This document shows, piece after piece, positions 43,459 through 59,100 of a stretch of DNA of 64,000 nucleotides. The stretch lies in contig NW_024704743.1 in assembly GCF_018977255.1 (NCBI RefSeq), positions 1,054,001-1,118,000 on the forward strand, read 5' to 3'. How positions within the stretch are numbered: the stretch's first letter is position 1; the number at the start of each line of letters is the position of its first letter. Origin of the DNA: Callorhinchus milii. Lineage: Eukaryota. The translations under genes and the position numbers were made by a program. The notes beneath the pieces are model-generated. The model was not told the DNA's origin. It ran no database searches and saw nothing but the letters and a program-made list of their open reading frames with translations.

Positions 43459-43766
43459 TTACTTTTTCATCAGACATTCTCTGTTGCAGACGCTTTCTCC
43501 CTTTATTTCTGCACATCCGTGGTAGTCAGATTCAGGCTTCTCCAGCATTTTCCCCTCGACGTTCCCTTCGTCTTCACTCAGAATGCAGTTTTTTCCAGTG
43601 TTCTCCGGACACAGATCTTTCAGCGCCTTTTCAATTTCACCTTGCTTGGCTAAAATGCCCAAAGAGCTTTTTGGCAAAGTCATCTGCAGAGCACACCACA
43701 GGGCAGTGCGGGCTTTGCGGGTCGAAATGGTCAACTCCTTTATGGCAGCTGCCAGGGCCAAAACAT
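43459..43766 (-). CDS. MEIOC-like last coding exon
   Basis: DVLALAAAIKELTISTRKARTALWCALQMTLPK..., ending in a TAA stop at 43461-43459; matches the MEIOC C-terminal RTALWCALQMTLPK. Confidence 0.95.
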
Positions 43767-44119
43767 CTGCTTAAAACAGCAAAACATCAATTTATACAAT
43801 ATTACATTTGCAAAGCCACCTTTCACTTTGGAAGGACGTCCCAAGGCGCTGGACAGTCAGGGATTTGAACCCAGGGGGGCTGGTGGCGGAGGGGGGGGGG
43901 GGCGGAGTTTGGGATCAGGAGTAGTGGAGGGCATTATATGACTGGAATTGGTGACTGGAAGGATCTAACACATACTACACTGAGTGCAAAACTGAGAGAT
44001 GACATCAGCCAGTGGCCAAAGCACTGAGGGAATTGGCGGACTGATAAGGTTGCATCAATACATTTGGCAGGTTGAAAAAATTCTGTATACATTTTTCATA
44101 AAATTGAAGAACTGCCTAC

Positions 44120-44300
44120 CCTTGTCATCATTGTACCGTGGTGCTCCTTGTCGCTGTCGATTTGCAGCATTTATTATCTCATCTTTACGACGTGCTTGGG
44201 TGACATGGATAGCTTCCAAATGACACTCAAGAGTAGTAGATATATTAGCATGAACTGGAGAGCTACGCAGACGTTCCATTTTGCCAAGCAAAGTTAAGAC
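44120..44300 (-). CDS. MEIOC-like exon 7 (181 bp)
   Basis: [42 protein letters not shown]...; AG/GT intact, phase 0-1. Confidence 0.95.
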
Positions 44301-44907
44301 CTGCCATGCAATTGAAATATCAACTGAAAAGACATTCTTAGGAATCTGCCAGTGAACAAATTCATTTTCAGCATGGAATGAGCAAGACTATTCGGCTCCC
44401 CAAACCAGCTTCCCAAACAGGCCATGCAAAGCCTCATTAAGGACATCATCACATCAACTATTTGCTGGGAGAGAGTTCTTCTACATGTCAAATATGCATT
44501 TGCTTACATTTAAGTAACTAAAGTTCACCTGTTTCTCCTTGACCCATCCTGAATTAATTAATCCGGTAAATGCTTTATATCGTTTTTATATCAGTCCATC
44601 TTTCAAAGGATGCTTAGTACATAATGATTACTGTACTCTGTACAGCTTGAGAACATATTGCGTTGTTTTACCCACCGACCGATCTGTTGTGCCACAGAAT
44701 GGGAATAAGATTTGCACTCATGATTTGGCCTCAACAAATTTCCAGTCTTTTTAGCACCATTTGGGTAAGTTCAGAAGTGCTTCTCACCCTCTCAACTGCA
44801 GAATATTGTGTGATGGGATACATGTAAAAGAGGGGTCCAAATAACAATCAAAATTGAACTAAACACGAAAAATGAACACTATTAATGTGTATTAAGAGTC
44901 CACCTAC

Positions 44908-45042
44908 CCTAGCCTGTTCACGTAACTGATCAACAATTAAACGGTCTACTCTTGAAGGATTAGAAGGAAGGCGAGGAACAGGAGTGTTGTTTGAACTAGA
45001 CACTCGTTTCCCAGGGAAGTTTCTTGCAAGCTCAGCTTCAGT
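44908..45042 (-). CDS. MEIOC-like exon 6 (135 bp)
   Basis: [45 protein letters not shown], a hallmark MEIOC motif; AG/GT intact. Confidence 0.95.
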
Positions 45043-46419
45043 CTGCAAAAAAAGAAAAGAGAATATGAATATACTCAGAAGTCCCATTATAACGCAATGG
45101 TTGGATGCATAAATTCCCAACCAACGCTTTAACTAAGAGTGATACTGGTTTCCCTGTGCATTTACAGTCAGAGTTGACTCACTGTGTGCTGGTTGATTAC
45201 CCGCACTAAATAAATTATCAACGTCCAGGTCATTGCCACAACATCACTTCCTATTTGTTGTGTATGCACAAGGCAGGAAGTGACCTCGGCAGCAACCTAA
45301 CAACCCAGAAGTCATCTTTTTTTTAAAAAAGTAGCATAATTGTAATGACTGATTTCCGGGTTATCAGTTCTCTGACAACATCACTTCATAGCTGTTTATG
45401 ATATATATATATTCTGTGCACAAATTGGCTGCAGCATTTGTCTAGAAATACAAGAATACTTTACAGTAAAACCCAGTAAAAAGAGCTTTGAGATGTGTCG
45501 ATGTGGTGACGATGTATATCAAATGCAAATATTATTATTATAATGTTGGTGGCAACCTAATGACCTGAAAAATGATCATTTTAGTACAAGAGACAGCGGG
45601 TTGTGCACATGTGCTGTCATTCGGACGCACACTGCATGTGCTATAAAACAAAATCCACGCAAAAAAAACCCAGCATTTTAAGACACTGTATGTATTAAGA
45701 ATATTCAATAGACCAAATGGCAATATTCTACGTCATAGATTTTATGATTCAGGCAGTTACATTTTCATCTCAGGAAAAAAAAATGCATCATTTGCTTAAG
45801 AGTGCTTCCACTAGAAAAATCACAGAACTATAAAAGTCCTTCTTCTCCTCAGTTAAGGAACATACCTTGGAGTAACCTTGTACTAGGTTACTCGGATTGT
45901 ATGTTACAACATCGTTCCATAAAATGTAACAATCAGAATGAAAAATAGTAGTTTAGACGTCTCAAAACCCTTCACAGGATTTTACTGCAAAGTGCAGTAT
46001 CTTTTTGTAAGCTGGAGTAAGCAAGAACAAAAAGAGCTTTCTCACACATACAATTACGTCAGTGTTCATTAATCAGTGGATCACTTGTTAATAGTTGTTC
46101 ATATATTGCACAATTTCAAGAAGTAACTTAAAAAATATCAGTCCACTTTCTTACAGTGTTCAACTACATTTCAGATGACTGAGTGAGGCATTTAATACTA
46201 TGAAAGGATTATGTAAGGCAGATGTTGATGACCTGTTTCCACTTGTTGGCAAGTCTAAAACTGGAAGGCATAAATATAGGATAGCCAGCTGTAAATCTAA
46301 TGGACAGTTAAGGAAGAATGCAGAGGGTGGTCATAATATCGAACTCCCAGCCAGAAACTGGTCGAAGCAAATCTCAATGTATTTCAGAGACATTTTTATG
46401 CATATGTGAGGGAGAAGTG

Positions 46420-56599: not shown

Positions 56600-56632
56600 G
56601 ATGGATGGATGGATGGATGGATGGATGGATGG
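56600..56632. repeat. (GGAT)n microsatellite
   Basis: Directly visible. Confidence 0.95.
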
Positions 56633-57896
56633 CAGGTACAATGAACTCACTGGTGAGTAGCACAGCTAGTAGATTTCAGTGCAGGGCGAAACCTTCTAAT
56701 AATAATCCTTGTATTTGATATAGCGCCTTATCATGCTATTGAGACGTTTCAAAGCACTTCATGGGATACTGTAAAGTGAATTGACTGTATATTTTGTGGA
56801 CGGAACCCGGGAGCCAATTGCGCACAGCACCAACAACAGAATTACGTTTATAGAGTGCCTTTCACTTTGGGAGGACGTCCCAAGACGCTGTCGTGGATTG
56901 AGTGACCACATTATTATTATTTTGAAGGGATTATTACCCCCGGAAAGCGATCTGCCGATACACTAACAACCCAGTTCCTACTTAGTGCGAGCTAAACAGT
57001 GGTGTGTGCGCGTGTGTTTGTGTAAAGAAACTTGGCTAAGGTTTCACCCTGTCCCGGCTCGGCGTCGTGCTCCGCCAATGTCAAGCGCTCCGAGACGCCG
57101 CCCCGCATGACGAGGGCTGAGTAAACGCAACTTGTTGTCGTATAGCGTCAGGGACGATGCTGCGAGACGGTGGGATGTGTGGCCCGGGGGACTTACAACC
57201 TTAGGACAAGTTTCCTTACTCCACCCGCGTTTATCTAGCAGTAAATAGCAACTCGGTCATTAGTCGATCGCCGTCCGGGAGTAATAATCCCTTCAAAATA
57301 ATAACAATTTGGTCACTCAATCCACGACTGTATGTTGGACAACTGTCTTCCGCGTTTCACCGACAAAACATACCGCACCTCCACTTTACAGTTTATCCTG
57401 TGAAGCGCTTCGAGACGTCAACTTGCAAAGACGTGATCAGGCGCTGTATCAAATGCAAGGGTTGTTACTATTATTATTATTATTATCATTGATTATTGAT
57501 TAAATCAGATTTCATACGTTCTACCCCAAGGTTGCCTTTCTTCGCGTAAAACCCGATTAAACGTTACGGTCCAGACTGATGCGGACCGATGCGAGTTACA
57601 TTGCAAGCCGCTGCCGCTGACAAACACCTGCGAGGAAGGGGGACGGTCACAGTGGCTGGAGCTGTGACGAGACGCAGCTTGCAACGGGTTTTTCCTTCCT
57701 TTTTGAGACGACGTCTCAAAAAGCGCTTTCACTTGCGTGCCGTCAAGTGAATCCGTTCGCACGTTCGTACGCGCGTCCCTCGCGGGCGGAAGACGCGGCA
57801 GCGGGGGAGTCCCCCACCCACCGACAGTTGCGGGTCGAAGCGACCGATCTATTATTGTTATGATTATTATTTCGTCGAAGGGATTATTACCCTTCT

Positions 57897-58231
57897 GTGG
57901 AGTCCTGTAGCTCAGTGGTTAGAGCACTCACTTTGCAAGCGAGAGACCTGAGTTCAATTCCAGGCAGAGGGCGAAACCTTGGGCAAGTTTCCTTACTCCA
58001 CACAGAGCCTAATAATAGTCCCTCCAAAACCAAAAACAATAATAAATTGGTCATTTTCAATCTACGACTGTTTGTGGGACATTGCTGTGCGCAATTGGCT
58101 GCCGCGTTCGCCCACAAATATACAGTCAATTCACTTTACAGTGTGTTCTGTGGAGCGCTTTGGGACGTCCTCCCGACGTGAAAAGCGCTCTATGAAATGC
58201 GAGGATTATTATTATTATTATTATTATTATT
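57897..58231 (+). mobile_element. Full-length tRNA-headed SINE with an L2-like 3' end and (TTA)n tail, nested in an older minus-strand copy
   Basis: A-box tagctcagtgg, B-box gagttcaattcc, (TAT)n tail; flanking direct repeat ATTATTACCC at 57883-57892 and 58226-58235. Confidence 0.9.
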
Positions 58232-58499
58232 ACCCCCCCACCGGAAAAGCGATCCGCCGATGGTCCGACAACCAGGTTCGCACCGACTGCGGGGCAACCA
58301 GAGGCGCGCGGAGTAAGGAAACTTGCCCAACGCTTCAAATCCTATATCCAACGCAAAGATTTATCATCATTATTATTATTATTATTATTATTTTGGCCCC
58401 CACCTCCCCTCAGCCCCACCCTCACCCAAATTAAACAACAAACAAAAAAAAACACTTTCTTTCTTTCTTTTTCCCTCTTCTCTCCTCTATAGTTTTCTC

Positions 58500-59100
58500 A
58501 CCAAAAACCAAAACCACTCACCGCCATGGGTGGCGAACAAGGCGCCCGGGGGGTGGGGGGGGTGTACACGGTCGGTCTCGTTGCTCTGAGGGAGACGAGT
58601 CGCCACCATGTCACACACACGCACTCCCTCTCCCCGCGCTCTCCTCTCAGCTCTGCACTGGAGCCGCTCGAGCGGACGGACGACCGCCCCCCCCTCACCC
58701 CACCCCCGGGTCAACGTTCCATTTCCAACCGTCACCAACGGTCAAACCCCGCAGCCGCCCCCACGGCTCGCGCTCTTTATGCGCGCGCTTCTGCTGCCAG
58801 CGCGCGCGCGCGGGCGCGGGCGGGCGCAGCGCAGCGAACGCTCACCGCTTTCCCTCCACCCCCACCCCCCCGCGCGGGCGGGACGCAGCCAGCAGCGCTT
58901 CCATAGCAACCGCCATAGCAACCGCTTCGCTCTGCTCCACCTTCCCGCCCCCCCTCCCCACACACACACACACACACACACGCGCGCACAAACCCCGCCC
59001 CCCGCCTTCGCCCCGCCCTCGCCCGCGCTCCTCCCTCCCTCCCGCGCGGCCAACCGCTGAGGAGCCCCGCCCCCCGACCCGCCCAACGCGCCCAAAAAGT
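58500..59100 (-). promoter_or_regulatory. CpG island / probable promoter and exon 1 of the MEIOC-like gene
   Basis: Very GC- and CpG-rich, GC boxes, CGCGCG runs, tandem CCATAGCAAC (X-box-like) and CAACCGTCA/CAACGGTCA (MYB-like) motifs upstream of the ATG-donor. Confidence 0.75.
58522..58527 (-). CDS. MEIOC-like putative coding part of exon 1 (Met-Ala)
   Basis: cccATGGCG|GTGAGT: consensus donor in phase 0, inside a CpG island, compatible with the phase-0 exon at 52094. Confidence 0.6.

Follow-up and report, generated by a model that had tools for sequence, protein, structure and literature searches.

Does the MEIOC-family gene located between IBA57 and OBSCN in Callorhinchus milii correspond to the MEIOC gene of mammals, or is it a second member of the family? 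The question is raised by a stretch of 64,000 nucleotides (nt), hereafter the window (NCBI RefSeq assembly GCF_018977255.1, contig NW_024704743.1, positions 1,054,001 to 1,118,000; here G000:C2:1054001-1118000), in which the gene extends on the minus strand from 58527 to 43459. The complex of MEIOC with YTHDC2 and RBM46 is the main known post-transcriptional switch into meiosis in vertebrates, and MEIOC is treated as a single-copy gene. We find that the window gene, here named MEIOC-B, is almost certainly an ancient paralogue of canonical MEIOC (MEIOC-A), which is located on another contig (C23) of the same genome, and that the pair very probably originated in a vertebrate genome duplication. 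Contigs C2, C23, C6, C27 and C1, mentioned below, all belong to this genome.

An intact and spliced gene

Conceptual splicing of eight exons (Table 1) yields 2847 nt encoding 948 amino acids (aa) with no internal stops, and all seven introns have GT..AG ends, in agreement with an initial annotation of the window that had proposed eight phase-compatible exons and an uninterrupted frame of about 948 aa. Residues 54-948 correspond to a protein of 895 aa at NCBI (P0001, "MEIOC-like [Callorhinchus milii]") that is 100% identical to the translation of exons 3-8. Exons 1 and 2, which are missing from this RefSeq protein, can be aligned with the beginning of canonical MEIOC as well as with that of long turtle, bird and marsupial isoforms. 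The C23 paralogue has a matching two-codon first exon with a GTGAG donor at 6744824, and two residues precede the exon-2 proline in the aligned clade-A proteins; exon 1 of MEIOC-B is predicted from homology to this paralogue together with the CpG-rich stretch that surrounds it. An alternative exon-2 acceptor 18 nt further in (52076) would give a protein of 942 aa, and the 948-aa version is favoured because exon 2 of the paralogue begins at the position that matches 52094.

Contigs from four runs (X1, X4, X5 and X9) were placed on positions 42000-54000, a stretch that leaves exon 1 and intron 1 outside. X9 is a genome-sized run, while the RNA status of X1, X4 and X5 is a guess that is backed by their spliced joints. 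Introns 2-7 were joined with CT..AC ends in X4 (6/6), X1 (5/6) and X5 (1/6), as compared to none of the six in X9 among the joints listed. Of the ten exon variants listed for these runs, seven are synonymous and none introduces a stop. MEIOC-B is a real, spliced gene with an intact frame. Some details are less favorable: one X5 contig (51969-52142) continues unspliced beyond the 52094 acceptor, and one X4 contig fills intron 2. The two contigs may represent pre-mRNA or DNA. The proposed junctions are supported by RNA-like contigs for introns 2-7.

Two clades of jawed-vertebrate MEIOC proteins

In a tree of 130 proteins, 39 entries including the C23 copy (clade A) were separated from 91 entries including the window gene (clade B) with a support of 100. 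Clade A contains sharks, coelacanth, caecilians, reptiles, birds and all 11 placental entries, with lungfish, paddlefish, bichir, eel, milkfish, mudminnow, Xenopus and platypus as additional members, while the branching order in clade B closely follows the accepted species tree. At least 17 species have both copies (Callorhinchus, Heterodontus, Narcine, Protopterus, Polyodon, Polypterus, Anguilla, Rhinatrema, Sphenodon, Carettochelys, Gavialis, Oxyura, Phoenicopterus, Mycteria, Elgaria, Pogona and Anolis). Since both clades contain sharks as well as bony vertebrates, and Ciona and protostome entries fall outside both by profile score, the duplication is placed by these proteins before the split of sharks and bony fishes and after the divergence of the invertebrate chordates.

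Alternative topologies were compared with approximately unbiased (AU) tests on 36 entries and 268 columns, 12 of 48 entries having been dropped (a partial lamprey sequence, Ciona, both platypus sequences, one invertebrate and seven near-duplicates). The tests rejected a duplication limited to the cartilaginous fishes (p = 1e-7), a duplication in holocephalans only (p = 4e-11), a grouping of the marsupial B proteins with placentals (p = 4e-62), and orthology of the window gene to the A proteins of bony vertebrates (p = 2e-128). The C23 copy, unlike the window gene, groups with placental MEIOC. The claim of the initial annotation that the gene is not the orthologue of mammalian MEIOC is thereby upheld.

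Two loci in paralogous blocks

A search of the genome with the PF15189 profile gave eight scored candidates, all of which fall in two loci, on C2 and at C23:6734351-6744824. The latter, which encodes P0047, is canonical MEIOC and represents the second copy that the initial annotation had suggested looking for. All five introns inside P0001 match those of P0047 in aligned codon and phase, and exons 1 and 2 correspond too, so that all seven intron sites are common; because of these matches, the copies derive from a duplication of DNA rather than from a retrocopy.

MEIOC-B is flanked by GJC2, IBA57 and OBSCN and does not adjoin GJC1, DBF4B or CCDC43. By exact look-up, GJC2 was located at C2:1126635-1127936, 14 kb from MEIOC-B, and GJC1 at C23:6651302-6652468, 82 kb from MEIOC-A. 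An exon for a zf-DBF domain is found at C23:6715782, 19 kb from MEIOC-A, and the exon at C23:6725725 next to MEIOC-A resembles CCDC43 and may belong to it; Pfam and Atlas gave no name for this exon. The human IBA57-OBSCN interval is not known to contain a MEIOC gene. The four Hox9 genes of the genome are on C2, C6, C23 and C27, of which C2 is probably the HoxA carrier and C23 the HoxB carrier, judging by the first residues of the Hox9 proteins. C2 and C23 also carry a pair of Wnt genes each, at the beginning of C2 and at C23:9.94-9.99 Mb. Although this comparison covers few families in one genome, MEIOC-A and MEIOC-B sit in paralogous blocks, as the initial annotation had argued from the matching human gene neighborhoods.

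A third gamma-type connexin, a TGF-beta-family gene that resembles inhibin and the best paralogue of OBSCN exon 2, which is obscurin-like, are located within 10 kb on C6 (L021, G000:C6:275499-284924), and the PF15189 search of the genome identified no MEIOC between the connexin and the obscurin-like gene. This is as expected if C6 carries a further copy of the same block from which a third MEIOC has been lost, the pattern of a fourfold block with losses.

Retention and probable loss of MEIOC-B

The distribution of the two copies was taken from protein lists, in which pseudogenes and unannotated genes cannot appear. Clade B is kept in sharks, rays, bichir, sturgeons, gar, bowfin, eels, bonytongues, lungfish, amphibians, reptiles, birds and marsupials, with a diverged form in platypus. 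Its ray-finned members are from bichir, sturgeons, paddlefish, gar, bowfin, bonytongues, tarpon, bonefish and eels, and two further fish entries join the eel group. Chanos and Umbra, teleosts of the wider group of zebrafish, fall in clade A, and zebrafish itself is not among the named entries. A clade-B protein of 791 aa (P0135), which is placed between lungfish and the ray-finned fishes, may be that of coelacanth.

With the Tasmanian-devil B protein as query (7999 candidates scored), the best 120 of 290 matches hold seven marsupials and reach frogs and sharks at about 40% identity, with no placental B protein among them. When 19 further B-like entries were placed, none fell in the marsupial clade. 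One protein of 246 aa (P0133) is from an amniote of undecided placement that could be a mammal; it grouped with birds in another tree. The platypus protein P0206 (XP_028933903.1; 643 aa), misnamed "collagen alpha-1(I) chain-like", belongs to clade B with a very long branch and 93/166 identical residues in the domain, and may be decaying. The seven marsupial proteins and this diverged platypus protein contradict the statement in the initial annotation that the gene was retained here and lost in mammals. We consider it probable from these lists that MEIOC-B was lost in placentals and in most teleosts; the losses are probable rather than proven because pseudogenes and unannotated genes escape such lists. 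Among the matches listed, neither a marsupial clade-A protein nor a snake clade-B protein was found by name.

A conserved domain in a diverged protein

The PF15189 domain covers residues 661-826 of P0001 (E = 5e-86; 286.9 bits versus a curated cut-off of 27) over the full profile (1-166), and four long helices are confidently predicted at 664-696, 719-745, 751-784 and 788-823, while the rest of the model is below 50 in predicted local distance difference test (pLDDT) score. No solved relative was found by sequence, and the fold search returned general helix bundles only, the best of which (Z = 10.9, root-mean-square deviation 4.2 over 163 residues) is below the level that is meaningful for bundles. 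In this domain, MEIOC-B is identical to the C23 copy at 147/166 positions (89%) and to dog MEIOC at 132/166, which agrees with the highly conserved C-terminal coiled coil of the initial annotation. The two short N-terminal motifs noted there are also present, and are common to canonical MEIOC. The middle region, by comparison, is identical at only 129/510 positions (25%) to the C23 copy and at 117/510 to dog MEIOC, as compared to 303/510 to a shark orthologue.

The same residue is found in at least 80% of both clades in 100 of the 166 domain columns, and only one of 26 positions in the predicted second helix of MEIOC-B differs from the clade-A consensus. Domain distances to 16 outgroup entries, which are not independent, are shorter for B than for A in sharks, lungfish, bichir and eel, and not in tuatara or mammals. 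In the stretch before the domain, B is at least as close as A to the same non-independent outgroups in ten out of ten species pairs. The songbird B proteins (P0012, P0016, P0017 and P0019) have many domain changes and a skewed letter make-up (crow 125/166 versus rhea 149/166), and their sequences suggest relaxed selection.

Origin of the pair

A single MEIOC that was relocated, a duplicate limited to cartilaginous fishes or an untranslated remnant would fit the plain name "MEIOC" given to some clade-B proteins (bowfin, Tasmanian devil), as well as the statement that PF15189 occurs "approximately once per genome" (Soh 2017, PMC5397071). However, a second copy was found, the AU tests reject the corresponding trees, the contigs are spliced with an open frame and both copies are present in at least 17 species, which leaves these accounts with a negligible probability. 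Quite improbable, too, is a segmental or single-chromosome duplication before the radiation of the jawed vertebrates. In its favor, only two of four possible copies exist, the gene trees cannot date the duplication against lamprey, and the local synteny depends on the two connexins and on Wnt and Hox genes that are far away; yet C2 and C23 are two of the four Hox9 carriers, and on a third, C6, a connexin still adjoins an obscurin-like gene without an intervening MEIOC.

A genome duplication has its own difficulties. The blocks differ in gene order, with MEIOC-A lying inverted with respect to its connexin, and the links to Wnt and Hox genes hold only at the scale of chromosomes, over 1 to 47 Mb. 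Lampreys have MEIOC-family proteins (P0199, P0202, P0290), although Soh 2017 (PMC5397071) reported no match for Petromyzon. In the AU tests, lamprey gave p = 0.086 outside A and B, 0.28 with A and 0.046 with B; a position outside both clades is not preferred, and either round of duplication may have made the pair. The root was unstable with invertebrate outgroups: a quick mixture-model tree recovered B (100) and not A, while the LG tree with outgroups joined A and lamprey (99) and gave B a support of 46. Neither an amphioxus nor a hagfish entry was identified among the MEIOC-family entries. HoxA has been assigned to an alpha and HoxB to a beta segment, with Hox chromosomes that are not uniquely pairable (Simakov 2020, PMC7269912). 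One abalone protein of the MEIOC family (P0160) was deposited as CLOCK.

Proposed function

In mouse, the coiled-coil domain of MEIOC is needed for binding to YTHDC2 and deletion of the second helix abolishes it (Abby 2016, PMC4729902); RBM46 joins MEIOC and YTHDC2, and mitotic transcripts are degraded (Qian 2022, PMC9401620). A search for YTH domains in the genome gave at least six matches in five loci, one of which was identified as YTHDC2 by its YTH exon (C1:103.7 Mb). A second multi-exon YTH locus is present at C1:13.2 Mb. The helicase-domain search did not mark YTHDC2.

We propose that MEIOC-B was formed by one of the early-vertebrate genome duplications on the Hox-bearing chromosome with GJC2, and MEIOC-A on the sister chromosome with GJC1. 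As judged from mouse and zebrafish MEIOC, MEIOC-B would be a cytoplasmic germ-cell adaptor without enzyme activity, whose helical bundle would bind the RNA helicase YTHDC2, together with RBM46, in a complex that clears mitotic mRNAs around meiotic entry. The two proteins would be alternative subunits of one YTHDC2 complex and share one helicase because only one YTHDC2 locus was found. A division of labor by stage, sex or partner, set by the promoters and the diverged disordered part, would best explain their long joint survival; for MEIOC-B, these would govern both the timing and the targets of its action. This explanation as a whole, with a copy made by genome duplication, an alternative YTHDC2 adaptor and a division of labor, is in our opinion likely to be correct. 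Binding to YTHDC2 is itself likely because the domain is 89% identical between the copies, and by analogy with MEIOC we would expect, with somewhat greater reserve, a mainly germline role.

A new job after the same origin was also considered: the bundle would serve another partner, such as Piwi proteins or germ granules, or MEIOC-B would work elsewhere than at meiotic entry, e.g., when stem cells differentiate, when oocytes store mRNA or in a somatic tissue. Several findings point in this direction and away from MEIOC-B as a mere duplicate of A. Consistent differences between the clades are seen in six columns, of which four fall within the domain; B has an aromatic and proline-rich block of its own that is conserved ahead of the domain; the middle region is far closer to a shark orthologue (303/510) than to A (129/510); and the gene was apparently dispensable in placentals. 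Zebrafish Meioc moreover binds Piwil1 through the same coiled-coil domain (Kawasaki 2025, PMC12289311), and the conserved surface of MEIOC-B may likewise serve another partner. Nevertheless, the 89% identity of the domain to that of A speaks against a new job, and so does the stretch before it, in which B was at least as close to the non-independent outgroups in all ten pairs, suggesting that an ancestral state was kept. We consider a new job unlikely.

Returning to the YTHDC2 adaptor, a more far-reaching version can only be advanced tentatively and is rather doubtful: jawed vertebrates would ancestrally run the meiotic switch with two MEIOC proteins that divide the tasks around a common YTHDC2 (e.g., one for stem-cell differentiation and one for prophase, or one each for ovary and testis), and placentals and the zebrafish lineage would independently have lost the same copy. 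If true, mouse and zebrafish would represent derived single-copy states, and their unlike mutant phenotypes may reflect duties taken over by the surviving copy.

Comparison with known MEIOC systems

MEIOC-B has been retained for more than 400 million years, and its presence in most jawed-vertebrate lineages raises the question of whether the meiotic switch has two arms. It shares the four-helix domain, the N-terminal motifs, the eight-exon plan, a similar length and a long disordered middle with mouse and human MEIOC (Gm1564, C17orf104; PF15189; partner of YTHDC2 and RBM46). In contrast to these proteins, it belongs to the sister clade, is located by GJC2, IBA57 and OBSCN rather than GJC1 and DBF4B, has a middle region that is about 23% identical, carries its own aromatic block and has no placental member among the matches listed. 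Zebrafish Meioc (moto, chromosome 3) is of the same family with the same domain and in germ cells binds partners of the Ythdc2 type as well as Piwil1; no meioc paralogue was reported in zebrafish GRCz11 (Kawasaki 2025, PMC12289311). Bam and Bgcn of Drosophila are a distant homologue pair in which the helicase side was duplicated, the duplication discussed in the part of the paper available being that of Bgcn only (Jain 2017, 10.1101/171827), whereas in Callorhinchus it is MEIOC that is duplicated, with one YTHDC2 locus identified.

No description of a MEIOC paralogue was found in the literature searched, which left most subscription papers outside its scope and in which several queries were swamped by "meiocyte". 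Paralogues are not mentioned in the main text or the searched part of the supplement of Abby 2016 (PMC4729902), and the part of Shimada 2026 (PMC13637641) available mentions zebrafish meioc only. In RefSeq and UniProt, the same gene appears under automatic names for sharks, birds, reptiles, amphibians and marsupials, either as "MEIOC-like" or as uncharacterised LOC models that are not recognised as one clade; the Callorhinchus model among them lacks exons 1 and 2. Databases mix the two copies, and at least ten clade-B proteins are plainly named MEIOC (P0022, P0037, P0062, P0073, P0075, P0091, P0132, P0141, P0324 and P0334). MEIOC-B represents a new paralogue in a known family and does not amount to a new mechanism; it is apparently a widely kept and undescribed paralogue of a key meiotic regulator that is already in RefSeq as "MEIOC-like" or LOC models.

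Features of the window

The positions of the MEIOC-B exons and of the neighboring genes are listed in Table 1. IBA57, MEIOC-B and OBSCN are all on the minus strand, and the structure and domain matches confirm the position between co-oriented IBA57 and OBSCN given in the initial annotation. The exon at 60924-61328 matches human CAF17/IBA57 structures (E = 4e-41), the exon at 63452-63832 has no Pfam match and is given to IBA57 by position, and the first Ig domain of OBSCN matches obscurin Ig1 (E = 5e-38). Downstream of the stop codon, a spliced X4 contig extends from 43766 to the edge of the examined stretch at 42000 and continues for 439 more letters.

Table 1. Features of the window, with positions counted from its first nucleotide (UTR, untranslated region; o/e, observed/expected)
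Feature	Position	Strand	Basis
MEIOC-B exon 1, coding part, 2 codons (Met-Ala), GTGAGT donor	58522..58527	-	homology to C23 paralogue
CpG-rich stretch, likely promoter	58501..59500	.	GC 0.70, 0.61; CpG o/e 1.04, 1.05 vs window median 0.55; promoter role inferred
MEIOC-B exon 2, absent from 895-aa RefSeq protein	51963..52094	-	aligns with exon 2 of canonical MEIOC and long clade-B isoforms; donor joined to exon 3 in X1, X4
MEIOC-B exon 3, P0001 start Met at 50785 and first conserved motif	50640..50806	-	contigs, alignment
MEIOC-B exon 4, conserved motif and short predicted helix (P0001 63-71)	49735..49836	-	contigs, alignment, model
MEIOC-B exon 5, 1816 nt, disordered middle, aromatic and proline-rich stretch, PF15189 start	47262..49077	-	Pfam, open reading frame list, contigs, model
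MEIOC-B exon 6, PF15189 helix 1 end, loop, helix 2 start	44908..45042	-	contigs, profile, model
MEIOC-B exon 7, PF15189 helices 2-3	44120..44300	-	contigs, profile, model
MEIOC-B exon 8, coding part, PF15189 helix 4, tail, TAA stop	43459..43766	-	contigs, profile
Probable 3' UTR of MEIOC-B, about 2 kb	41391..43458	-	spliced X4 contig; AATAAA at 42135 and 41391
IBA57, last two coding exons, upstream neighbor	60921..63832	-	PF25455; PDB 6qe4/6qe3
OBSCN 5' exons, tandem Ig domains, downstream neighbor	583..30620	-	I-set domains; obscurin Ig1 4c4k/4uow; open reading frame list

Two further candidates for coding exons introduce stops and were rejected, namely 54735-54634 as an alternative first exon and 51789-51646 as an exon of 144 nt. 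Intron 1 contains a second CpG-rich stretch (54001-55000) with a GTGAGT donor at 54637, which could be an alternative non-coding first exon. Also present in intron 1 are a tandem repeat of 235 nt at 55178-55412, with a period of 18 and 13.5 copies, and several copies of a common interspersed repeat.

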